Assembly (NCBI GenBank): GCA_964388035.1
Contig: CAYLZE010000080.1
Location: forward strand, 1-23,293
Reading direction: 5' to 3'
Origin: an uncultured archaeon
Lineage (GTDB): Archaea > Asgardarchaeota > Lokiarchaeia > Sigyniarchaeales > SOKP01
Length of the DNA stretch: 23,293 nucleotides
Below the pieces are notes generated by a model. It saw only the letters and a program-made list of their open reading frames with translations. It had not been told where the DNA came from and searched no databases. Positions 410 to 18,967 of this stretch are shown here, piece by piece (the first letter of the stretch is position 1; every line of letters begins with the position of its first letter). Made by a program: the position numbers and the translations under genes.

Positions 410-940
410 CTACTCCACTATTTCTTTTCTTTTAATCTCAAGAGAGACTTTGATTAATAATTTTTCCAAGTCCAGATGATAACCAATTAATGGAGTTAAT
501 TGTACTTCGTGATGGTCGTTATTCAATTGAAGATATCCTATTTTCTCTAATTCTTTTAAATCTTCTATAATATTTTTTTTATTCCTAAGCTCCTTTATCT
601 CTGCGATTTTCGTGATACCTGAATGCTTTAGACAACAAATAATGACACTAAAAAGAGTAGCGGCTAACTTAGGGCGTCCTTCGAAGGGATTTAATTTGAT
701 TATATCAGAGATTGTAGCATCATGGGCAATGAACCAATGAGAATCTATGGGATTATATCTTATTCGAAGTCCAAGAGGATTGAGATATTCTGCCAAATTA
801 CTAATGATTCGATCAAATAATATGGTCTTATTTTTATTGTTAAAATTTAATTTTTCACAAATTTCTTTTTTAGAAGCTCCCATGGTTTGGATGTGGCCTT
901 TTTTGGTGAGGAGGTGCATCAATACTGAAAATTCATTCAT
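410..940 (-). CDS. KITE subunit (tandem winged-helix; ScpB/Nse1/Nse3-like) of the SMC complex
   Basis: 176 aa, last gene of the smc-kleisin operon, with GGTGA RBS upstream. FDRIISNLAEYLNPLGLRIRY resembles the WH-A helix/wing of ScpB/Nse1/Nse3. LKELEKIGYL...VQLTP resembles WH-B. No RING motif. Confidence 0.7.
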   Translation of the reverse strand: MNEFSVLMHLLTKKGHIQTMGASKKEICEKLNFNNKNKTILFDRIISNLAEYLNPLGLRIRYNPIDSHWFIAHDATISDIIKLNPFEGRPKLAATLFSVIICCLKHSGITKIAEIKELRNKKNIIEDLKELEKIGYLQLNNDHHEVQLTPLIGYHLDLEKLLIKVSLEIKRKEIVE

Positions 941-954
941 TTAATCACCCATAA

Positions 955-1584
955 TTATTTATATAATGTATGTGTTTCTTTTTGATATTTAATTCTTCCT
1001 AATTGCAGAAGATGTAATAAATAGATGAATTTCTCATAAATTTGAATTTGATCTCTCTCGTTTTCAAAAATAGCATTAAACTTGCAAGGAAGTAGGTTAG
1101 CAACTTTCTCATAAAAATTGTTCATGTTTTCTTCGAAAGTTTTCTGGGGTATTTCAAGGATGAAATCTCTCTTTTTTTCCTTAAATTCTAGATGTTCTAT
1201 TTTAATGGGTTCAGAAATCATGGATGATAATTTATCCTTACTTTTTATCATGAAATCAATGGATATCGTTTCTAATGAAAAAGGGAACATCCAGCACCCT
1301 TGAAACAATAGTGATATGTCATGATCTGAGGGATCTTGTTTTAAGTATTCCATGAAATTATTTTGATTATCTAAGGATCGCAATAAAATTTGGAATTCTT
1401 GAAATTTTTTTTCCAGAATATCATACACTTGTTGATATGTATCGGTTGAAGCTTCTAAATTCGTAATAGTGATTAGCTTTTTTAATCTGTTAAATAGAGG
1501 CACGAGTTCCAAATTTAATAAGGTAGTTTTTCCTTTAATTACATTCTCTTGAATCTCTTGTAATTCTTTTTCCAATTCTTCCAT
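955..1584 (-). CDS. scpA: Kleisin (ScpA/Nse4-like)
   Basis: 209 aa, immediately downstream of smc. The N-terminal helical domain (VIKGKTTLLNLELVPLF...YDILEKK) fits the kleisin neck-binding region. The C-terminal FIYLLHLLQLGRIKYQKE matches the ScpA/kleisin winged-helix motif FxxLLxLxxxGxI. Confidence 0.8.
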   Translation of the reverse strand: MEELEKELQEIQENVIKGKTTLLNLELVPLFNRLKKLITITNLEASTDTYQQVYDILEKKFQEFQILLRSLDNQNNFMEYLKQDPSDHDISLLFQGCWMFPFSLETISIDFMIKSKDKLSSMISEPIKIEHLEFKEKKRDFILEIPQKTFEENMNNFYEKVANLLPCKFNAIFENERDQIQIYEKFIYLLHLLQLGRIKYQKETHTLYK

Positions 1585-1601: not shown

Positions 1602-4600
1602 TTAATCTGTTTTATTATTTTTATTTTTTGTAGGGATTAGCTTGGGGATTAGAATAGTGGAAGCTTCATTTTTCCCCGTTCTTGCTACTCCAATTAATTT
1701 TTCTGCTAATGAAAAGAGTGCTTTTGATGATTTTGGAAGAAATAATATCATCTGTATTGGATTGTGTTCTAAAGTGGATCGAATAAGTTGATAGGCGGCT
1801 TCAGAATTTCTTTCATCTAAAAACATCCCGGCTTCATCAAGCATACAGAGAGGGGAAGGTTTAATTTCTTGTAAAGAAAGTATCAAGCAAATCGAGATCA
1901 TGGATAATTGTCCTCCACTGAGTGCCGAACAAGAAATAAATTGATTATTTCCAGTAGCTGCTTTAACATCTACTTCTAGATCCTCAAATTCTCCCGTCAA
2001 GTAAAGAGAACATTGAACATTGATATTGGCCTTCGAAAATTTCTGATTTATATTCAATTCGATATTATTTAAAACTTTTTTAAATCGATTAGTATATGTC
2101 TTTTCCAGTTTATTTTCGGTTTTTATGGCTCCTTTTATATCTTGCTCTAAATTTGCTTGATTTTGGGAAATTTCTTTAAGAGAAGACATTATGTGATCTC
2201 GTTCTACAAGTAAAGATTCGTCCACATCATAATATTTCAGTAATTCTTGATCCAATCGATAAAGATCTTTTTTGATTTCCTCCATGGTTCGAATTTCAAT
2301 CTTCCTTTCAGAAATCAATGGACCAATTTCATCATTTATTCGGTTTAAGTCATCATTTTTATGAAAAAATTCTTTTTTCTCAGTATTTAATTCTATATTT
2401 TTGCGTTCTAACTCCAGTTCAATTTCCACTTTTTTCCTTTCGATGGAACTTTTTTCTTGTTCCAGATCACCTTTTTTTATTTTTAACTCTGCCATCACAT
2501 TTTGGAGCTCGTTCAATTTCTCTTCCGTTTCTTCTAAAGTTCTATACGTTTGAAACGCTTTATTATCTGCTTTCCGAAAAGCTTCTATTTCAGTATTATA
2601 TTGACTTTTTAATAAATGAAGCTGGGTCGTATTGTTATTGATCTTTTCTTCTAATTCTTTGGATATTATTACATTTTCATCTAAATTTTTATCCCATTTC
2701 TTCTCCTCAATTTTTAAATTGCTCATTTCTGCAGGAAGCTCTTTAATTCTCTGATTCCATTCCCATAATTTGGGATCTTTTTTAGCTTCTAATTCTGTAA
2801 TTTTGGATTCTAAATCTTTGAGTTCTTCTTTTAAAGTTGAATTTAATACTTCAATTTGATTCCGTTTATCATATTGATCGTTCTTTTTTTTCGTGAGCCT
2901 TTCTCTTTGATTAAAATTGTAAAGAAGATCATCAAAGGCCTTTTTTTTCCCATAAATCTCCTTTTGGAGATGATCTAACTTGGAAGCTTCTACCTTTAAA
3001 TTGGATATATTATCATTAAGTCCCTTTATTTCTAATTCTAAAATTTTAACTTGCTCCATTTGGGAACCCGTGCTCAAAAATCCTTTTAATTTTTTTATGT
3101 GAGGTGTTTCATAGACATACTTTAATGAACTGATTTGTTCTCCATTTAAGGTCACGCATTTTCCTCCAAAATTGGTAGATTTATAGAGGCTTTTTCCAGA
3201 AAGAAAGTCTTTTACCACCACAGTATTTTTTGCAACTGAATATATTACTTTTTTAATATCAAGATTCTCACACTCGATTAATTCCGCAAGGTAACCCATT
3301 ACTCCATGAGCTGATATCTCGGGAAAAAGCTTAATGCTTATATTTTTGGGAAGATAGATATTACAGTATGCGTTGTATTTGTTTTTTAAACGCCTTAATA
3401 ATTCCACTGTATCCCAGTTGGAAGCAACAAAACTATATAAGACTTTTTCTCCCAGAATGGACTCAATTGCATAACTCATCTTGTCATTATATTTTAAATA
3501 TTCAATTATGGGACCGATTGCCTCTAAATTGCGTTTGATAATTTCTTCTTTTAAAATACTGATTGGAGTTGGTAAAAGTACTTGTCGTTTTCTTAAAGAT
3601 TCCGTTAGAAAGCTTAAATCTCTTAGTTTTTTATTTTTTTCTATTTCTTTTTTTTGAAGATCATTATCCGTATCATACAACTGGAAATTTGTGTCTCTCA
3701 AATCATCATCTAATTTTTTTAACAAATTTTGGGTAGGATCTTTCAGAAACCACTTATTTTGCTCAAATTTATGCCCAATATCCTTTATGCTTTGAAAGAT
3801 CTGATTGATTTCAGAATTTAAGGTTTTTATATTTTTTTCGTTTTCAAGAATAATTTTTATTTTTTGTGCTTTTTCAGTAATAAGATTATCGTGTTGCTCT
3901 AAAATTTCTTTATTAACTTCAATTTTATTAAATAAATCTTGTTGTTCCTTGAGTATCTGTTCAAAATCTTTGTTTATCTTTTCTTTTTCATTTTTAATCA
4001 TTTCAATTTCTTTGTGCAATTTATCGTAATTCTCATGATAATTTTCTAAGACTTTTTCCTGTGATTTAACTTTTTCTTCAAGTAGGTCAATTCCTTTTTT
4101 CTTTTCTATTTTTCCTTGTTGCCATGTTTCTATCTCGGTTATTAGATTTTCCTTTTTATTGTTTAAAGCGCCTAGCTTTTCTGACATCTCTGTAAGTGAG
4201 GATTCCAAATCTTTTATTTTATCAAGAATGGAAACAACTTTTTTTTCTTCAGAAACCTTCCCATTTTCAAGAATTTGTACTTTTTTCTCAAGCTCTTTAA
4301 TAATTTCTCCTAAAGTCACGATCTCTTCCAGAAGAGCCTGCCTATTTGCCCATAATAGCTCATCCTCAAAAGTTTTCCGCTCTTCTACTAATTTCATCTT
4401 ATCTTTTAAGCGTGCCAGTTTTGGCTTTAGCATGTCCAAATTAATGCTTAATGCATTTTTTTTGGTAATCAGAGATTGTAAATTTTTATTAAGTTCCAAT
4501 ACGTTATTTTTTTGCTGCAGAATTTCTTGGCGCAAACTGCTCAAACCTATTCCCTGTTCAAGAAATTTACATAATTCATTAGGACGTAGGCTTTTTATTG

Positions 4601-5084
4601 CATCAATTTTCCCTTGACTAACCAGAGCAAATTCATTATCTGGATTATAATTTAATCTTTTCACAATCTCTTGAACTTCAGTTGCTAGCACCTTATTAAA
4701 TTGTTTATCTGAACTGGTCATTAAATGATAATATGGAGAGTGTCCTCTAACCACGGTCCTCCGTATTTTAAATTCGTTCTTCCCCTCTTGAATATGAAGT
4801 TCTACCATGGCATGATTTTGTCCATGTCTAATGAAATCAGACCATTTTTGATATCTTTCATCCCTTTCGTTACTACCTAAGCAAAATTTGATTGCTTGAA
4901 AGATCGATGTTTTTCCACTCCAATTTGGTCCCACGATAATGATAAAACTAGAATTCCCCAGATCTACTTCGTCCTTTTCAAAAGACAAGAAATTTTCTAA
5001 AATCACTTTTTTAATATAAGGCGATTTTTTAAAAGCTTCTTCCATTCCATCATAATTTTGTGTATCTGAAATGTCTCTTGGCAT
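1602..5084 (-). CDS. smc: SMC protein, SMC5/6-like (coalescin-related) type
   Basis: 1160 aa. ILENFLSF, Walker A GPNWSGKT, Q-loop NPDNEFALVSQG, long coiled coils, central hinge (AIGPIIEYL...AIESILG...CVTLNGE), signature LSGGQ, Walker B/D-loop LCMLDEAGMFLDERN, and QMILFLPK in place of the H-loop. Confidence 0.93.
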   Translation of the reverse strand: MPRDISDTQNYDGMEEAFKKSPYIKKVILENFLSFEKDEVDLGNSSFIIIVGPNWSGKTSIFQAIKFCLGSNERDERYQKWSDFIRHGQNHAMVELHIQEGKNEFKIRRTVVRGHSPYYHLMTSSDKQFNKVLATEVQEIVKRLNYNPDNEFALVSQGKIDAIKSLRPNELCKFLEQGIGLSSLRQEILQQKNNVLELNKNLQSLITKKNALSINLDMLKPKLARLKDKMKLVEERKTFEDELLWANRQALLEEIVTLGEIIKELEKKVQILENGKVSEEKKVVSILDKIKDLESSLTEMSEKLGALNNKKENLITEIETWQQGKIEKKKGIDLLEEKVKSQEKVLENYHENYDKLHKEIEMIKNEKEKINKDFEQILKEQQDLFNKIEVNKEILEQHDNLITEKAQKIKIILENEKNIKTLNSEINQIFQSIKDIGHKFEQNKWFLKDPTQNLLKKLDDDLRDTNFQLYDTDNDLQKKEIEKNKKLRDLSFLTESLRKRQVLLPTPISILKEEIIKRNLEAIGPIIEYLKYNDKMSYAIESILGEKVLYSFVASNWDTVELLRRLKNKYNAYCNIYLPKNISIKLFPEISAHGVMGYLAELIECENLDIKKVIYSVAKNTVVVKDFLSGKSLYKSTNFGGKCVTLNGEQISSLKYVYETPHIKKLKGFLSTGSQMEQVKILELEIKGLNDNISNLKVEASKLDHLQKEIYGKKKAFDDLLYNFNQRERLTKKKNDQYDKRNQIEVLNSTLKEELKDLESKITELEAKKDPKLWEWNQRIKELPAEMSNLKIEEKKWDKNLDENVIISKELEEKINNNTTQLHLLKSQYNTEIEAFRKADNKAFQTYRTLEETEEKLNELQNVMAELKIKKGDLEQEKSSIERKKVEIELELERKNIELNTEKKEFFHKNDDLNRINDEIGPLISERKIEIRTMEEIKKDLYRLDQELLKYYDVDESLLVERDHIMSSLKEISQNQANLEQDIKGAIKTENKLEKTYTNRFKKVLNNIELNINQKFSKANINVQCSLYLTGEFEDLEVDVKAATGNNQFISCSALSGGQLSMISICLILSLQEIKPSPLCMLDEAGMFLDERNSEAAYQLIRSTLEHNPIQMILFLPKSSKALFSLAEKLIGVARTGKNEASTILIPKLIPTKNKNNKTD

Positions 5085-5104
5085 TATTCTGACTCTCCCC
5101 CAAT

Positions 5105-6370
5105 TTATTTACCAAACGCTTGTTTTAATAAATCAATTCTTTTTTTTGCTTTTTCTAAATTAATTTGAGCAATATTGGGCGTGTCATTTAATACAATTGG
5201 ATACTTTACTAAGATTTTCCTGGCATTTTCCTCTAATGGTTCATTTTTCTTTAACTTATCGATTATTATTGTTAACTCGTTATAGTTTTTAGAGGCGGCC
5301 TCTTCATAGAGTTGGTCCGATAAAAAATCAGGATATCGCTTTTCTTGTATCTCTTTAAGTAATGAAATGATATTTTTTCGAGATGTAGAATCCTCCCTTA
5401 TTCCTTCCGAGATCTCCTTCAATTCTCTTGCGGGTGTTAATGGTTCTATAGATTTAATTTTCTCTTTTTCCAATTTAAGAATATTGCTAGGGAAGACTTC
5501 TCCCGAGTCAATTAGACTAAAAATGAGGTCTGTAATTTCATTACTAGTTTTATTAACTTCATCTCTCAATTGATGCTTTAAAATCGCCATTCTGAGAAGA
5601 TGACCGATTTCCTTAATCTCCCAATTTCTTGTTTTCTCTACAACTTGTTCTAAATGAAATGTAATTTCTTTATTTTTCTCTAAAAAGTCTTTTAGATATG
5701 TTTCTCGTTCTATATCGCTTAGGATAGGAATTTTAAGGTATAAATCAAACTTCTTAAACACATCCATGGAGTTCTCCATGAGAATCTGCCTGTCATGATT
5801 TATCCAGACCAGAATGACTCCATTTTCGATTAAAGAGGTATTTTTTTCTCCTTTAATTTCAAGATAAATAAACTGCTGTAAAATGCTACGATCTTCAAGT
5901 AATTTTAAAAAGATTTTCTTTTCGTTAATTAAAACAATGTTGATCACCTTATTGGATTTATCCTTCCCCTTTTCTTTTAGAAGATCATTTCCTACTATTT
6001 CTTCAACCTTTTTTTTATTTTTTATAAGATTTGCAAAACTATTCATGAAATAAGCTAAAAAATTGGGAATATCTTTAATTATTTGCACGAAATCAAACTC
6101 TATAATGTTCAAGTAATAATTTTTGGCAATTAATTTAATATAATCTACAAAATCGGTTCCTTCAGGAACGGTTACTATTAGAGCTCCTTTTAACTTTAAA
6201 TCAGAGAGTAATCCGGAATCTTCTGAACGAGTTAATAATAATTTAAAATAATTCATAATTTCATCATATCTTCCTCTGAAAAATACGTCACCCTTATCAA
6301 TTACTAATTTTGAATAAGGAATAGTTCTGAAATATCTATGAAGTCCTGCCCCTTCTTTTATTTCATCCAT
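5105..6370 (-). CDS. Degenerate (probably inactive) classical-clade AAA+ ATPase with a C-terminal helical extension
   Basis: 421 aa, colinear with CDC48/PAN-type AAA modules: KGALIVTVPEGTDFVDYIKLIAKN (cf. [21 protein letters not shown]), IVLINE (Walker B DE>NE), VILVWINHD...KKFDLYLKIPILSDIERETYL (cf. RFDRxIxIPLPxxxxRxxIL) and lid LEQVVEKTRNWEIKEIGHLLRMA. Confidence 0.65.
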   Translation of the reverse strand: MDEIKEGAGLHRYFRTIPYSKLVIDKGDVFFRGRYDEIMNYFKLLLTRSEDSGLLSDLKLKGALIVTVPEGTDFVDYIKLIAKNYYLNIIEFDFVQIIKDIPNFLAYFMNSFANLIKNKKKVEEIVGNDLLKEKGKDKSNKVINIVLINEKKIFLKLLEDRSILQQFIYLEIKGEKNTSLIENGVILVWINHDRQILMENSMDVFKKFDLYLKIPILSDIERETYLKDFLEKNKEITFHLEQVVEKTRNWEIKEIGHLLRMAILKHQLRDEVNKTSNEITDLIFSLIDSGEVFPSNILKLEKEKIKSIEPLTPARELKEISEGIREDSTSRKNIISLLKEIQEKRYPDFLSDQLYEEAASKNYNELTIIIDKLKKNEPLEENARKILVKYPIVLNDTPNIAQINLEKAKKRIDLLKQAFGK

Positions 6371-6784
6371 ATCTCATTCACTTTTCAATTTAGTTTTTTC
6401 TTTCAATATTCATTAAATGGTAAGAATTGATATTTAAATATTTGGGATGTTTTACGTTTAATATATTTATTCATTAACGTATCCGACAAAAATTCCCTTT
6501 CAAAAATTCAAAGTCCTTGACAATTTCTTATTTTTTTCTTATTTTTAATCATCCTATTTCTAAAGTATAATTAATACAATTTTTTAAAATCATGTAGTCT
6601 AGTGAATTTTGATAAAATAAATGTAAATGTAAATTCTAAACTAAGATTCTAAGGTCGAAGATTATATGATCACATTTTTTAAAATGATGCAATTTAAAAT
6701 AACACGATTTTACTTTGTAACATCAGAAACTTATTCCATTTAAATTAAAAAAATGTAATAATTGAACAAATTAGTTGGTGTCCA

Positions 6785-7741
6785 ATGGATTTTTTCACCC
6801 ATATGATGATTGGAATATTACTATATAAATCCATTTCTCATTCTTTGAGTTTTGATTACGTAATTTTTATTGCCCTAATGGCCGTTTTTCCCGATTTGGA
6901 TGTTTTTTTAGGCGTCTTTAAAAGAATAAAATCTTCTGTATTTTTATCCCACAAAGGAGTTTCCCATACCTATTTTGCAGCTCTATTAGTTTCCATACCT
7001 ACTGGTATCATCTTCTCTTTAATTACAAAAAGTCCCCTCTATATTGCGATTTTATATGCATTTATTTTTTACAGCTTACATGTTACTTTAGATGGTTTAG
7101 CCGCTTCAAAAATGATGGTATTTTATCCCTTCTCAAAGAAGAGACACAGACTATTTTTAGATAGAGCCATAAATCCTTTCTTATTAATAGTATCTCCCAT
7201 CTTTTTCGCCTCGGATATAGTTTATCTCTTTACTTTAAATGCCCTTTACTTCTTAGTTATTACTTATATTCAATTAACCTTTTATGGTATCTATTTTGGA
7301 ATTAAAGTCTTTGTTAAAGTGTTCGTTTATTTGCAGCTTTCCCCCACTCAACAATACCTTCCCGGAATTTTTCCATTTTGGTATTATATTTATGAACGAA
7401 CAGCGGCAGTTGGAAAGCATACTTTCACTCTAATTAAAAAATCTATATTTTCAAAAAAAAATGACATTGTAATAAGCGCTTCAATACCCAAAAATTCAAG
7501 GGATGAACTATTATTATTAAAAACGATTGATTATAGCCAGAGATATGCTTTTTTCTCAAAGTGGGAATACATGATCCCCATGGTTAAAGAGGAAGATAGC
7601 GTTATTAACTTTTATTTATTTCTAGCTGAAAGTTATTCAAGAGGCAGGGCTTACCATATAGAAATACAATTTAATAAGAATACGCAAGAGATTATCAACG
7701 CAGAAGAAGGATTTGACCTTAAGCTATTAAAATTATCTTAA
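6785..7741 (+). CDS. Membrane-bound metal-dependent hydrolase (YdjM/DUF457 family)
   Basis: Motifs MDFFTH, FPDLD, HKGVSHT, HVTLD and FYPFS; several TM segments; soluble C-terminal domain. Confidence 0.85.
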   Translation: MDFFTHMMIGILLYKSISHSLSFDYVIFIALMAVFPDLDVFLGVFKRIKSSVFLSHKGVSHTYFAALLVSIPTGIIFSLITKSPLYIAILYAFIFYSLHVTLDGLAASKMMVFYPFSKKRHRLFLDRAINPFLLIVSPIFFASDIVYLFTLNALYFLVITYIQLTFYGIYFGIKVFVKVFVYLQLSPTQQYLPGIFPFWYYIYERTAAVGKHTFTLIKKSIFSKKNDIVISASIPKNSRDELLLLKTIDYSQRYAFFSKWEYMIPMVKEEDSVINFYLFLAESYSRGRAYHIEIQFNKNTQEIINAEEGFDLKLLKLS

Positions 7742-11519: not shown

Positions 11520-12617
11520 TTAGTTTTCAGATTCGAATCTTATTAATTGATACAATTTCCCTTTAAATTCGGATAAGGATAAATCACTATTTCTAGATAC
11601 TCCAAGTACTTTTAGATTCTTAAGTTTTAAGATTTCATTTGGAAGTTTTTTTAATTCATTATTCTCCACGTATAGGATCTCTAATTTCGTTAAATCACCA
11701 ATGCTTTCAGGGAGTTCGATTAATTCGTTATCATCCAAGATTAATTCTCTGAGATTCTCAAGTTTTCCCATTTCCTTTGGGAGTTCTACTAATTTATTTC
11801 GTTCCAAATCCAACTTGGTTAATTTGGAAAGGTTACAAATGGAATCGGGTAAAAATCTTATACTGTTATGATATAGTCCTAATTCTTTTAAATTTTCTAG
11901 ATTTCCTAAAGCATCCGGTAGCAGTTCAAGATTATTCTCCTCTAACTCCAATCTCGTCAACTCTCTTAAGTTTCCAATACTATCGGGTAAAAATTCTATG
12001 CAATTATCTCTTAAATCAAGCCGTTTTAGCCTTGTTAATTTTCCTATATCGTCAGGTAAGCTAACTAATTTATTTCTCTGTATGTTTAAATAAATTAGAT
12101 TTCTTAAGTCACATATCTCTTCGGGTAACATGAAGATTTCATTATTTCTTATTGCTAACCATTCTAGTTTGTTTAAATTGTTGATCTTTTTAGGTAACCT
12201 ACCAATTTTATTATGAATTAAATAAAGCCGTTCTAAATGTGAAAGATTTCCAATTTCTTCAGGAAGAAGAGATATGTAATTTCTTCCTAAATTTAAGTAT
12301 CTTAGTTTTTTTAAATCAAATATTGAAGGGGGTATAACCTTAAATTCATTCTGTTCTAAATTTAGATACATCAACTCTTGGAGTGTCGAAAAACTTCCGG
12401 GTAAAGATGATAAAAAATTACCACTCAAATCCAATCTTTTTAGATGGATCAATTCACCGATTTGTTCAGGGAGTGAGGGAATATAAAGTCTTGAAAAATC
12501 AAGCTTGATTAATTTCTCTCCCAAAAATAAGGTATTTTTTCTTTTTAATATCTTATATATCTTCCCTCTTAAATTTAAAATCTTTACAATCTCGTTAAAT
12601 ACATCAATATCTTTCAA
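11520..12617 (-). CDS. Leucine-rich repeat protein (about 14 repeats of 23 aa, SHOC2/LAP-like type)
   Basis: Repeats of LxxLxLxxNxLxxLPxxIGxLxx. The TTG start is supported by an AGGTGAT RBS about 8 nt upstream. Confidence 0.95.
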   Translation of the reverse strand: MKDIDVFNEIVKILNLRGKIYKILKRKNTLFLGEKLIKLDFSRLYIPSLPEQIGELIHLKRLDLSGNFLSSLPGSFSTLQELMYLNLEQNEFKVIPPSIFDLKKLRYLNLGRNYISLLPEEIGNLSHLERLYLIHNKIGRLPKKINNLNKLEWLAIRNNEIFMLPEEICDLRNLIYLNIQRNKLVSLPDDIGKLTRLKRLDLRDNCIEFLPDSIGNLRELTRLELEENNLELLPDALGNLENLKELGLYHNSIRFLPDSICNLSKLTKLDLERNKLVELPKEMGKLENLRELILDDNELIELPESIGDLTKLEILYVENNELKKLPNEILKLKNLKVLGVSRNSDLSLSEFKGKLYQLIRFESEN

Positions 12618-12640: not shown

Positions 12641-13966
12641 TTATCCCTGGTAAATGTCAACAAAACAGCCATTAGCTTTTAATTTTTTAAACATTACATG
12701 GTTTGATTCTTCAAGGGGATTCCCCGCTATCCATAAGCATGTGAGGCTTATCAATTCCTCTAAAAATCGAGGAATGGAGGTCATCTTATTATTTCTTAAA
12801 TCCAAAAATCTTAATCTCTTTATCTTTGCAATTGACTCTGGAATTTCTGTGAGATTGTTATTCCTTAGATTCAAATCTTCAAGCTGATCTAATTTACTTA
12901 TTTTGGGGGATATAGTATTTAAATTGTTGTGGGAAAGATTTAAAGAAGTTAAGTTCAATAAATTCCAAAAATCATCTGAAAGTCCCGAAAGGCGATTTCC
13001 TCCAAGATTGCATTCACGCAAATAATGTAGTTTTTGAAAGCTTTTTGGAAGTTCTTTAATGGAATTATTCTGAATTTCGATTTTTTTTAGATCTCCTAAT
13101 TCACCTAGTGTTTCGGGCAAGAATTGCAGGTAATTCCCATATAACCGCAAATCTTCAAGTCTTTGTAGATTAATTATGTTTTCAGAAATATATTTTAGGT
13201 TATTGAATGTAAGATCTAAGCGTTCTAAATTCTTCAACTCCCAAAAGGTATTTGGCAGGGAAGTTAGCTTATTTGCTCTTATATCCACTCGTTTTAATTT
13301 CTTAAGACTACCAAAGCTTTTTGGGAGTGAATCAATCCTATTTTTTTGAATATTCAATACTTCCAGTTTAGAAAGAGAATCGATCTCCGAAGGTAATGTT
13401 TTCAAGTAATTATTTCCAAGATCCAATATCTTTAATTTCCTTAAATAACATAGTGATGAGGGTAAAGAAAGCAACCTTAAATTGCGCAAGCTTAAATAAT
13501 TTAACTTTTTTAAATTTGAAACTTCTTGAGGAATTTGGTTAATGTTATTGCTCCCTAATTCTAATTTGCGTAACTTTTTGAGACTTGTTAAGGATTCTGG
13601 AAAGTCTTTCAGCAAATTTTCTCTCAAATCCAATTTTCGGAGATTTATTAGTTTATTAAAATCTAAATCTAATGATTCGAAAGAATTTGCTCTTAGGTCC
13701 AGCCTGTTCAAATTAATAAGCTTTTCGATAGCTTGAGGTAGATTTTTGAGTTTATTATATCTAATATCTATTCTTCTTAAAGATTGAAGCATTCCGATGC
13801 TCTCTGGAATCTTTTCGAGATTTAAATTCTTCAGATCAATCTTTATTAAATTCCCATCCCCATCTAAAAATTCAGTATTTATTCTCTCAGTTATTATCTC
13901 TTCTTTAATTTCAAGATCTTTTAAAAATTGAGCGAAAATTTCAAAATTGCTATAATTATTCGACAT
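12641..13966 (-). CDS. Leucine-rich repeat protein (about 17 repeats of 23 aa)
   Basis: Same LRR consensus. N-cap GNLIKIDL, C-cap LWIAGNPL...KKLKANGC. Confidence 0.95.
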   Translation of the reverse strand: MSNNYSNFEIFAQFLKDLEIKEEIITERINTEFLDGDGNLIKIDLKNLNLEKIPESIGMLQSLRRIDIRYNKLKNLPQAIEKLINLNRLDLRANSFESLDLDFNKLINLRKLDLRENLLKDFPESLTSLKKLRKLELGSNNINQIPQEVSNLKKLNYLSLRNLRLLSLPSSLCYLRKLKILDLGNNYLKTLPSEIDSLSKLEVLNIQKNRIDSLPKSFGSLKKLKRVDIRANKLTSLPNTFWELKNLERLDLTFNNLKYISENIINLQRLEDLRLYGNYLQFLPETLGELGDLKKIEIQNNSIKELPKSFQKLHYLRECNLGGNRLSGLSDDFWNLLNLTSLNLSHNNLNTISPKISKLDQLEDLNLRNNNLTEIPESIAKIKRLRFLDLRNNKMTSIPRFLEELISLTCLWIAGNPLEESNHVMFKKLKANGCFVDIYQG

Positions 13967-14767: not shown

Positions 14768-15403
14768 TTGAAAAATCCATTCAAAAAGAAAATGTCTAAT
14801 AATAATATAATTTCCATTGTAGAAAATTATGCTCAAGCTCATTCCGTGAGTAATGATATTCATGGCTTTCCCCATGTGATAAGAGTTTATAATACGTGTA
14901 TTCAAATGGGAAGGGCTCTAAATGCCGATTTACTAATCCTGAAAATTTCAGCCCTACTTCATGATATTGGAAGAATCAAGGAAAAGGAGGATCTTTTGCA
15001 TAAAAACCATTCAGAAATTTCTGCAGAAATGGCACGTTCTTTTTTCGAAACAAACAATTTCGAGCTTTCACCGGATTCAATAGGAAATATCGTCCATGCA
15101 ATTCGAGCTCATTCATTCTCTAATAAAGTTCCAGCAAGAACTTTAGAAGCGCAAATTTTATCCGATTCGGATAAATTGGATGCTATAGGAGCAATTGGAA
15201 TATACAGAACTATAGGGTTTACGATTCAGAATGGTGGGGGCATTGAGCAAGTATTAAAACATCTTACGGATAAAATATTGAAATTGAAAGACTTATTATA
15301 TTTAGAGCAATCTAAAAAAATGGCTAAAGAACGTCACGCCCTCGTTCTGGATTATTATAAAAAGTTAAGTGATGAAATTGTAAATTCTCAACCAGAGGAA
15401 TAA
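14768..15403 (+). CDS. HD-domain phosphohydrolase (YedJ-like); start may be the ATG at 14792
   Basis: HGFPHVIRV, ALLHDIGR, HSEISA, IRAHSFS, LEAQILSDSDKLDAIGAIG. Confidence 0.92.
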   Translation: MKNPFKKKMSNNNIISIVENYAQAHSVSNDIHGFPHVIRVYNTCIQMGRALNADLLILKISALLHDIGRIKEKEDLLHKNHSEISAEMARSFFETNNFELSPDSIGNIVHAIRAHSFSNKVPARTLEAQILSDSDKLDAIGAIGIYRTIGFTIQNGGGIEQVLKHLTDKILKLKDLLYLEQSKKMAKERHALVLDYYKKLSDEIVNSQPEE

Positions 15404-16900: not shown

Positions 16901-18967
16901 TTAATTGATAGAAAGAGTTAAATCAAGTGAATCAATAATATCTTCAAATCTTTGAAATGGGGTAATGTTTCCTTGGAAATTTATAATATAATCATGGAAT
17001 TCTTTCCAAAATCGCTTGTAGATTGCTTTTAATATCTTTTTAGTGATTTCAATGGAGGTTTTTGAACTAATTCGTCCTAAAATAAAGAAATTTTTATTCT
17101 CTTCTTGAAATAGCGTATAGGAATCATTTCCAATAGTAATTGAATCTAATTCTCTTTGGGCGATTTCTACACTTATATTTTTTAGGGCGGTAATAAATCC
17201 ACCAAGTAAATCTTGATCCATTTCTGTTTCAGGGGCATACGAGAACAATTTCACCCCCGATATTGTTGAAAATATCCAAATTTCTTTGATATATCCAAGG
17301 GGATGCAGTTTATTAGGTTTTTGAATCTCGCTCTCATGAATGCGTTCTGATACCAATTTTACTCTATCGGAATAATAAGGTATTTTATCATATTGTTTGA
17401 GCGTGGTAAGTATGGATAAAATTTGATTTAAAATCACTAATTCTTCATGTACAGGAATATCAAATTTACTAAGAATATCTTCAGCTATTATTAAATTCCC
17501 CATTCCTTCTTGGAAATTATATAAAAAAATGAGAGAATGTGCTAGATCATGGTATAAAGATGCGATAGAAAATGAATCAATGAATCCAAATCGTTCCAAA
17601 TCATGTAAAATGTCTCCAATAAACATCGCTCTTTTTTCATGTAATTTTAATTTTTTAAAAAGTTGGATTACTTTTTTGGATACACCAAGTTGATTGAAGG
17701 GAATATTTTTAGCATGAATAATCTCTAAAGTTTTCATGTAATAATCCAGCGCGGTGTTTTCATTCTCAACAATTTCATAAAGATTTCCTATTGTAAGCAG
17801 AACGTGGATTAAAGTGGAATAATCTTCTAATTCTTCTAATATTTTTTCAGAATTTATATAAAAGTTTAATGCATCGGTCAAATAATTCTGATACTCTCCC
17901 ATTCGAATATAACCCAATTCATTAATCTTAGCAGCATGTAATCTAAATAGTACATTTCCCATTTCATAATAGACTTGTGAAAGTTGCTTTTTTTGTTTTC
18001 CGTTTCGCTGAAGTTCGAGTAATTTTTCAAGAGCATTATTAAACATATCAAATGCTTCATTGAACTTATTTGAATGTACCAAGCTTTTTCCAAATACAGT
18101 ATAAAATTGAATTAAGTTTATCTTTTTTGGATTTATTTTCTTGAGGTTATTAAATAATCGATTTGCAGATATAAAATCCTCAAGTTTATATGCAGCAAAT
18201 GCCTCCATGAATAAACTTGCTTCGTAATATTTTTTATCCTGTATTCTTTCGTATATTCCATTTAATTGATTAAAATAGTGTTTTGCTTTTGCGTAATTTT
18301 TCTTTTTAACAAGTAAATTCCCCATTAGATACAAGACTTCCGCCATTAAATTCAAATGTTGTTCTTTTTCAAATTTTAAAAGGACTTTCTTAAAAATACT
18401 GTATGCTTCTTCATCATTATTTTGCTTATATAATGTGATTCCTGCTTGAAAATCTTCCATTGCTGCTGAATAAGAATATGTATCACTTATTTTAACATCT
18501 GCGTCTTTAGGAATAATTTTCAAACTTAGGATTTTTTTAAACTCTTCATAGTAGTTTTCAAGAGAAACCGTTTTGTATTTTAGAAAGTTTTGAGATACTT
18601 TTAATAGGATCTCATTAAAAAATTTCAATTCTTCATCCTCAAAATAATCAGGAGCAAGAAGAACAATGAAATATGGTTGAAATCCCCCTCTAATATGTTC
18701 ATTTAGAATAGAATTAAAGATAACATTCGCTTTTCTGTTCAATTTAAATATTGGAACAATTATCTCCGCTTTATGATAAGGAATATCGGGATTCTGATAA
18801 AAAAACTCATATAATTGGAAGATATAAATAGATAATTCTTCTAAATTACCTAGATTAAAATGAGGATATACATCAATTACTTTTGGACCCAATAAATCAT
18901 CCCAGATAGCCATGAATGTGTAGAGTTCTCGTGTTTCATTATTTTTTGAAGATAGAATGTCCTTCAT
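16901..18967 (-). CDS. uDENN/longin - TPR - longin protein (paralog A, Arg-containing)
   Basis: N-terminal FMAIWDDLLGPKVIDVYP...IRGGFQPYFIVLL; central TPRs (AEVLYLMGNL, SQVYYEMGNV, LLTIGNLY, ASLYHDLA); C-terminal longin IKEIWIF...SGVKLFSY...DQDLLGGFITAL...FQGNITPFQRF. Confidence 0.8.
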   Translation of the reverse strand: MKDILSSKNNETRELYTFMAIWDDLLGPKVIDVYPHFNLGNLEELSIYIFQLYEFFYQNPDIPYHKAEIIVPIFKLNRKANVIFNSILNEHIRGGFQPYFIVLLAPDYFEDEELKFFNEILLKVSQNFLKYKTVSLENYYEEFKKILSLKIIPKDADVKISDTYSYSAAMEDFQAGITLYKQNNDEEAYSIFKKVLLKFEKEQHLNLMAEVLYLMGNLLVKKKNYAKAKHYFNQLNGIYERIQDKKYYEASLFMEAFAAYKLEDFISANRLFNNLKKINPKKINLIQFYTVFGKSLVHSNKFNEAFDMFNNALEKLLELQRNGKQKKQLSQVYYEMGNVLFRLHAAKINELGYIRMGEYQNYLTDALNFYINSEKILEELEDYSTLIHVLLTIGNLYEIVENENTALDYYMKTLEIIHAKNIPFNQLGVSKKVIQLFKKLKLHEKRAMFIGDILHDLERFGFIDSFSIASLYHDLAHSLIFLYNFQEGMGNLIIAEDILSKFDIPVHEELVILNQILSILTTLKQYDKIPYYSDRVKLVSERIHESEIQKPNKLHPLGYIKEIWIFSTISGVKLFSYAPETEMDQDLLGGFITALKNISVEIAQRELDSITIGNDSYTLFQEENKNFFILGRISSKTSIEITKKILKAIYKRFWKEFHDYIINFQGNITPFQRFEDIIDSLDLTLSIN

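Follow-up and report, generated by a model that had tools for sequence, protein, structure and literature searches.

A selected pseudo-AAA protein linked to the second SMC-kleisin-KITE operon of Asgard archaea

SMC complexes are described as assemblies of an SMC dimer, a kleisin and KITE or HAWK proteins. A second SMC-kleisin-kite operon of TACK and Asgard archaea has been published and was read as SMC5/6-related, and the published accounts of this operon treat three subunits (10.1101/2024.01.07.573240; PMC8665677). In these archaeal operons (van Hooff, Raas, Tromer and Eme; Yoshinaga and Inagaki 2021), a second SMC paralogue is followed by small kleisin-like and KITE-like genes, as is the case in the DNA analysed here. 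The main texts of 10.1101/2024.01.07.573240 and PMC8665677 contain no occurrence of the term 'AAA', which in the supplements of the preprint appears inside taxon names only, and neither account mentions the gene that precedes the second SMC. Full-text literature searches likewise did not turn up any account of an AAA gene located at an SMC operon of archaea. Hence, the second Asgard/TACK SMC operon itself was already known, and the pseudo-AAA gene that heads it is absent from the literature searched.

The window, i.e. the whole stretch of 23,293 nucleotides that was analysed, is DNA of an Asgard archaeon with a G+C content of 30%. On its minus strand, four genes are arranged head to tail, encoding a protein here designated X (6370-5105), an SMC protein (5084-1602), a 209-aa protein (1584-955), and a 176-aa protein (940-410). 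The features of this run are as follows.

6371..6784, minus strand: AT-rich intergenic region between X and the divergent YdjM gene, read from the sequence only
5105..6370, minus strand: X, pseudo-AAA protein of 421 aa, gene 1 of the operon (intact ORF; homologues; AAA fold)
5085..5104, minus strand: gap of 20 nt between X and SMC with the Shine-Dalgarno-like GGGGAG at 5095-5100, 10 nt before the ATG of SMC (sequence)
1602..5084, minus strand: divergent SMC paralogue of 1160 aa in which Walker A, Q-loop, signature motif and Walker B are all intact (SMC_N and SMC_hinge domains)
955..1584, minus strand: kleisin-like protein of 209 aa (conserved position; weak matches to ScpA C-terminal winged-helix domains)
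410..940, minus strand: KITE-like tandem winged-helix protein of 176 aa (conserved position; SMC_ScpB and DUF4194 matches in orthologues)

The original prediction, which was made from the sequence of this DNA, had described X as an intact frame of 421 aa heading an SMC operon, and both points held. The frame at 5105-6370 on the minus strand is uninterrupted, and the 20-nt gap to the SMC gene has no room for a separate promoter or terminator and shows no sign of either: apart from the Shine-Dalgarno-like GGGGAG, no terminator-like site was found between 5085 and 5104. The operon promoter is likely located in the intergenic region 6371-6784, which contains a TATA-like TATTTAAATA at 6431-6440. 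A sigma-70 promoter and terminator scan returned counts at chance level, the model underlying the scan being ill-suited to archaea. Among Lokiarchaeia-type loci with called genes, HD and YdjM genes recur around X.

The catalytic residues of the window SMC are invariant, and the protein scored 213 bits against TIGR02169, compared to a cut-off of 729. Since a canonical SMC (contig C27) and ScpB (contig C39) are encoded elsewhere in the genome, we regard the operon as a second SMC system. The designation 'SMC5/6-like' for this operon stems from published phylogenies. Placing the window SMC with SMC5/6 by HMM scores against SMC chains of the PDB was tried and rejected, as the ranking, which is not a phylogeny, gives no such grouping: SMC4, SMC2, SMC3 and SMC1 chains (185-227 bits) scored above SMC6 and SMC5 chains (143-160 bits). 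The profile of the kleisin-like protein obtained only weak matches, to the ScpA C-terminal winged-helix chains 4i99_C and 5xns_C (E 0.07-0.4). For the KITE-like protein, SMC_ScpB was matched by two of 13 orthologues (best E 1.2e-6) and DUF4194 by one.

Sequence searches of Pfam, NCBIfam and the PDB with the window X protein returned nothing meaningful, no AAA model of Pfam or NCBIfam being matched, and alignment of its close-homologue profile (A1) to a PAN sequence by hhalign was not significant (E 0.32). The AAA fold, which had been proposed on the basis of residual motifs, was established at the level of structure by Foldseek and VIA-align searches with an AlphaFold2 model. This model was built on 32 homologues and had a mean pLDDT of 73.6. 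The top Foldseek matches were all classical-clade AAA proteins (E ~1e-6, probability 1.0), including Cdc48/p97, katanin, Trip13, Msp1, FtsH and PAN. VIA-align superimposed 245-260 residues on p97 D2, SPATA5, spastin, Vps4 and Rpt subunits, with Z scores of 15-16 and an rmsd of ~4.5 A. In sequence searches with 19 X orthologues from other Asgard families, PF00004 was matched by 13 (best E 4e-25) and AAA_lid_3 by seven; NCBIfam matches of orthologues comprised FtsH, PAN, CDC48 and CdvC, all far under the curated cut-offs. In two loci, an HMM of X orthologues also detected the neighbouring PAN gene (E 6.6e-14). X would thereby descend from an AAA ATPase of the classical clade (PAN/Cdc48/FtsH type). 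More than 360 homologues were collected, all of them 400-430 aa in length, annotated as 'hypothetical', and of Asgard origin (labelled Promethearchaeota, Lokiarchaeota, Thorarchaeota or Hodarchaeota). Ten longer members of the family (514-623 aa) carry extensions without any Pfam domain, and no fused X-SMC protein occurred among the longer proteins searched (738-2105 aa), which is weak evidence. According to the model, X consists of an AAA module (residues 1-295), a linker (296-334), and a compact helical domain (335-421), with the following parts.

5732..6343, minus strand: AAA large (alpha/beta) subdomain, residues ~10-213 (secondary structure of the model; alignment to p97 D2, spastin and Vps4)
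5486..5731, minus strand: AAA lid (small helical subdomain), residues 214-295, with the motifs IPxLxxxERE and T-x-x-W-E-x-x-[DE]-I (model; AAA_lid_3 in 7 of 19 orthologues)
5369..5485, minus strand: linker, residues 296-334, of low confidence and poorly conserved (pLDDT 29-46; 16 to 45 residues long among orthologues)
5108..5368, minus strand: C-terminal helical domain, residues 335-421, the most conserved part, with a net basic last helix

In place of the helical C-terminal region of ~120 aa described before, X thus has a low-confidence linker of ~39 aa (296-334) followed by a compact helical domain of 87 aa (335-421). The latter is the most conserved part of the family, and distant orthologues match the profile there only. 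Modelled alone, the domain reached a pLDDT of 87.9. Its last helix has a net charge of +3 to +6 in all 31 orthologues analysed, and the AAA module is acidic. No fold relatives of the domain were obtained (Foldseek against the PDB, E>=2; VIA wide search, Z<=5.4). A shape search of the Atlas retrieved solely its own Thorarchaeota orthologues, and a feature search of the Atlas gave no usable match. The many HTH matches at Z ~4 sit under the noise level of the tool and are not taken as evidence of a DNA-binding fold.

Inspection of the AAA module revealed that the motifs quoted in the original prediction are present, although TVPEGTDF is located at 6149-6172 and not, as given there, at 6148-6171. 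Two of the positions concerned are as follows.

6149..6172, minus strand: degenerate P-loop TVPEGTDF, residues 67-74, with conserved G71-T72-D73 and without GK[ST] (sequence and homologue alignment)
5918..5935, minus strand: strand IVLINE at the position of Walker B, residues 146-151; family consensus LLINQ (sequence and homologue alignment)

The claim that the catalytic elements are eroded was accurate for Walker A, the acidic pair of Walker B and the arginine fingers, whereas the sensor-1 Asn (WIN, N192) is apparently kept. A canonical Walker A is found in none of 119 close X homologues and in one of 63 full-length representatives of the family, and the acidic pair of Walker B (hhhhDE) is not conserved in the family. 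The SRH region, WINHDRQILMENSMDVFKKFD (residues 189-209), is without both SRH arginines. The arginine-finger position reads MDVFKKFD, and no Arg aligns with RPGRFD. The lid motif RNWEIKEI corresponds to residues 248-255, and by alignment no pore-loop aromatic is left. Thorarchaeota-type orthologues display an equal loss of motifs in a more AAA-like background (GPPGTDF, LYIERIE). In orthologues of two other families, Walker A is intact (GTGKT, GNGKT) and Asn replaces the catalytic Glu; these Walker-A-retaining proteins have an N-terminal extension of ~100 to 200 residues. As a few lineages keep Walker A without the catalytic Glu, the dead form of X is derived from an ATP-binding one. Judging from its motifs, X in this lineage is probably no longer able to bind or hydrolyse ATP, and the distribution of motifs suggests that its ancestor may have been an ATP-bound switch that was later frozen into a nucleotide-free form.

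Linkage of orthologues to the SMC operon, another element of the original prediction, was found throughout: X directly precedes the same SMC clade in all loci examined, covering at least eight Asgard families. The order X, SMC, kleisin-like gene, KITE-like gene, all on one strand, was found in 41 of 41 Asgard loci for which sufficient DNA was available. The distance between X and SMC in other loci ranges from -19 to +60 nt, several being overlaps of 4 nt. Profiles of the X C-terminal domain and of the KITE-like protein were compared across the same 301 Asgard genomes; both were present in 135 genomes, KITE only in 14, X only in seven, and neither in 145, counts that carry no test statistic as related genomes are not independent. 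The X-only and KITE-only cases are mostly fragmented assemblies, and those that were inspected represent contig ends or a divergent C-terminal domain. At the level of families, both profiles are common to the same eight, and about twenty families have neither. The profile of the X C-terminal domain matches at most once per genome, and X is present in 62/68, 7/7, 60/76, and 6/6 of the genomes searched within carrier families.

In almost all of the matched genomes, the X frame is open and free of internal stops. The dN/dS ratio of X in the closest pairs was 0.14-0.25 (Nei-Gojobori, dS 0.85-1.1), which describes the family and not the window copy alone, the closest relative of the window gene in the comparison being saturated (dS 1.65). 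The corresponding ratios were 0.11-0.28 for the kleisin-like gene, to which X is similar in this respect, and 0.11-0.14 for the SMC gene. Purifying selection and open frames support the earlier notion of a maintained pseudoenzyme as opposed to a decaying gene. Taken together, we concluded that there is strong support for X as a selected pseudo-AAA protein tied to the second SMC system.

A complex prediction, which had been proposed along with the original reading, was performed on full-length X and the head and neck of the SMC (residues 1-260 and 900-1160), with alignment rows in the same genome order. An ipSAE of 0.64 was obtained in each of three runs, compared to 0.25 for the best of three controls, and the result supports binding at the level of the model. 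The two controls with unrelated partners scored 0.00. In the control that scored 0.25, the C-terminal SMC piece had been replaced, and this score fits a predicted interface that lies almost wholly on the N-terminal SMC neck helix. When the tool was calibrated, 58 of 80 solved complexes attained this mark, as did 2 of 110 mismatched pairs, figures that are only a rough guide here given custom alignments and three chains. At least 28% of contacts are shared between the runs, and the partner pLDDT is at least 66. As we know of no solved complex between an AAA protein and an SMC neck, a pass from model memory is unlikely. The predicted docking site is the following.

4419..4487, minus strand: N-terminal coiled-coil helix of the SMC neck, residues 200-222, where X is predicted to dock (predicted interface list)

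Confident predicted contacts connect SMC residues 200-222 with three segments of X. By alignment, residues 26-43 of X correspond to what used to be the adenine-binding N-loop together with helix alpha0, residues 80-86 to the end of the P-loop helix, and residues 218-227 to the first helix of the lid. Hence, the prediction supports docking of the AAA module on the N-terminal helix of the SMC neck, and the neck helix would run across the mouth of the dead nucleotide cleft. Within the AAA module, the residues of the X interface are those conserved most strongly, with a mean of 0.91 versus 0.68 for the module in alignment A1, which was not used in the prediction; none of 20,000 random sets scored as high (p<1e-4). 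The interface includes eight family-invariant residues (F30, R32, Y35, K43, L80, Y85, Y86, and E221). Conservation of the interface residues does not extend from Lokiarchaeia-type to Thorarchaeota-type orthologues. The SMC side is moderately conserved, ranking 93-99 of 591 arm windows (~top 16%). A concerted clade-specific change on both sides of the interface is visible and was rejected as evidence, since related genomes share such patterns anyway. The C-terminal domain, the most conserved part of X, lies outside the predicted SMC contact, and since the prediction covered X with the SMC head and neck, the main contact of X could lie elsewhere, on kleisin, KITE, hinge or DNA.

From these data, we consider it reasonably probable that X is a maintained pseudo-enzyme derived from a classical-clade AAA protein and is dedicated, as a non-catalytic subunit or regulator, to the second Asgard SMC-kleisin-KITE complex. 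In light of the strict adjacency and the predicted contact, X is likely a physical subunit of the SMC complex, and it probably represents an undescribed fourth subunit of the second SMC system. An accessory or loader functionally analogous to Nse5/6, as put forward originally, is still the best reading, with linkage, selection, fold and predicted neck binding pointing in its favour. Kleisin N-domains bind SMC necks in solved complexes, and the site of X would lie at or just above this position. There, X may modulate the neck gate or head engagement and thereby affect loading, release or control of the ATPase, its placement resembling the one that Nse5/6 has on Smc5/6. With its flexible tether and basic end helix, the C-terminal domain may make a second contact with DNA, the kleisin/KITE pair or the other SMC. 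A further-reaching version, which we regard as possible and rather doubtful, is that the nucleotide cleft of X was converted into a clamp for the SMC neck: the ancestral protein would have been an ATP-bound switch gating ring opening or loading that later became a constitutive regulator, and Nse5/6 would have taken over its job in eukaryotic Smc5/6. This mechanism is offered as a specific and testable prediction and not as a finding.

Other explanations for the gene were also weighed. As an adaptor, X might connect the SMC ring with an active AAA machine (PAN, Cdc48 or MoxR), either within a mixed ring or for remodelling or extraction of SMC; the original prediction had likewise suggested a link to a CDC48/PAN-type unfoldase. 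Inactive classical-clade subunits do occur in mixed rings, and the Ycf2-FtsHi motor is among the fold matches of X. In addition, PAN is encoded ~5 kb upstream in loci L001 and L003, and a truncated X of one Asgard family is immediately preceded, on its own strand, by a MoxR-type AAA gene together with a weak VWA protein. However, neither PAN nor any other AAA gene besides X occurs within the window, PAN where present is on the opposite strand, and the MoxR link was seen in a single one of the families examined. Moreover, X has lost the arginine fingers, which are ring-joining elements, and by alignment has no pore-loop aromatic. The link to an unfoldase thus gained no support, and an adaptor function appears unlikely. 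The net basic last helix in every orthologue and a weak resemblance (Z ~4) of the C-terminal domain to winged-helix/HTH domains and Orc/Cdc6 C-terminal domains would fit a nucleoid or DNA-binding factor that is co-regulated with the SMC genes and physically separate, with the AAA shell as a scaffold or oligomerisation module. We consider this quite unlikely, as scores of Z ~4 are under the stated noise level of the tool, and the strict adjacency of the genes, whose stop and start codons often overlap, together with the supported predicted SMC contact, argues for a shared complex.

Restriction of plasmids and viruses is an established function of SMC-family systems that carry extra subunits, and the weak NCBIfam matches of X orthologues include the anti-phage ATPase IteA. 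Accordingly, the four genes might make up a defence system of the Wadjet-like or SMC5/6-like kind that is directed at foreign DNA, with X as sensor or effector partner. In contrast to a defence island, the family shows the pattern of a core gene, with at most one match per genome and presence in most genomes of carrier families. The HD and YdjM neighbours recur among the Lokiarchaeia-type loci with called genes, and no nuclease or other effector gene is present, so that a role in defence seems very improbable. That X is a decaying remnant without function would be in line with the erosion of its catalytic motifs; yet open frames in nearly all matched genomes, the dN/dS values of 0.14-0.25, many invariant surface residues and the highly conserved C-terminal domain already contradict this explanation, to which we assign next to no probability.

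If true, a conserved and selected pseudo-AAA subunit of the Asgard SMC paralogue, the reading that we prefer, would constitute a new kind of SMC accessory. The system would then provide a tractable model for the regulation of a homodimeric SMC5/6-type complex before eukaryotes arose. As the predicted interface names residues to mutate, the hypothesis is directly testable with recombinant proteins and does not require an Asgard genetic system.

In comparison with known systems, X has the two-subdomain fold and the order of motif positions in common with classical-clade AAA ATPases (PAN/Rpt, Cdc48/p97, FtsH, Vps4/CdvC, spastin/katanin). It differs from these in being without an N-terminal substrate-binding domain and in having an extra, family-specific C-terminal helical domain on a flexible linker. 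A similar case, in which selection has preserved an AAA fold although catalysis was lost, is FtsHi of the Ycf2-FtsHi motor (PDB 8xku), which is among the fold matches of X. However, FtsHi proteins stay in AAA rings with active partners, whereas X is tied to an SMC ring and has lost the ring-forming elements. To our knowledge, none of the extra SMC regulators known so far (Nse5/6, Scc2/4, Wapl, MatP, JetD) has an AAA fold. Nse5/6 is an alpha-solenoid and shares no homology with X, the fold of which is that of an AAA protein. Nse5/Nse6 is described as a non-catalytic accessory near the SMC heads and necks that regulates ATPase activity and loading (Taschner et al. 2021, PMC8327961). This head/neck location in eukaryotic Smc5/6 is comparable to the neck position predicted for X.

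Genes of a YdjM-family membrane protein and of an HD-domain protein form repeated surroundings of the operon encoding the pseudo-AAA protein X, SMC, and the kleisin-like and KITE-like proteins, occurring in the window and at the Asgard loci L001, L003, and L005. In the window, these genes are located as follows:

6785-7741, forward strand: YdjM-family membrane protein gene, divergent to X
14768-15403, forward strand: HD-domain gene

The YdjM gene was also found in L001 and L005, and in L001 and L003 the HD gene is adjoined by a gene encoding the AAA ATPase PAN. No PAN gene was found in the 23,293-nt window. Two neighboring leucine-rich-repeat genes and two TPR genes, the latter tandem paralogues, are also present in the window:

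11520-12617, reverse strand: leucine-rich-repeat protein of 365 aa (LRR_8, E 7e-50)
12641-13966, reverse strand: leucine-rich-repeat protein of 441 aa (LRR_8, E 2e-61)
16901-18967, reverse strand: TPR-containing protein of 688 aa
19009-21054, reverse strand: TPR-containing protein of 681 aa

Among the full-length family representatives obtained by searching with the profile of the Lokiarchaeia type, P0185 (374 aa) is the only member with a canonical Walker A motif (GPLGTGKS). An Atlas feature search with P0001, the X protein of the window, additionally yielded two clusters of hypothetical proteins from Actinomycetota at 0.96, just under the cluster of P0001 itself. These proteins of 356 and 426 aa have no Pfam family and may represent further cryptic AAA-like proteins.

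At L032, L033, and L038, with the start taken at the first ATG, GTG, or TTG, the SMC open reading frame of the operon begins approximately 300 nt past the end of X and is about 100 residues short; this could stem from a frameshift, from a mistake in the assembly, or from initiation at a different codon. The family with a Walker-A-bearing X has an operon SMC of 832-835 residues (L016:5070-7577, L025:4792-7290), approximately 300 fewer than at other loci.

In one further Asgard family, distinct from that of the window and represented by L010 and L020, X is a truncated protein of 271-276 aa, and the genes for SMC, the kleisin-like, and the KITE-like protein come after it, in that order. Two genes are situated directly upstream of X:

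L010:3050-6429 and L020:8-3287, same strand as X: MoxR-type AAA gene and gene for a protein of 557-559 aa

The MoxR-type gene product matched AAA_5 (E 1e-10) as well as AAA_3 and AAA_lid_2, and the 557-559-aa protein displayed a weak match to VWA_2.

The following genes occur upstream of the Walker-A-bearing X:

L016:2610-3347 and L025:2333-3052, strand of X, approximately 350 nt upstream of X: protein of 240-246 aa
L016:9-980 and L025:137-1285, farther upstream: ThiF-family E1-like gene

The 240-246-aa protein matched the Peptidase_M48 motif barely above the cut-off (24-25 bits versus 20.3 bits), and a weak match to zf-RING_2 (E 1.3e-4) fell below the cut-off. An SMC5/6-type operon with a RING or E1 neighbor may merit attention.
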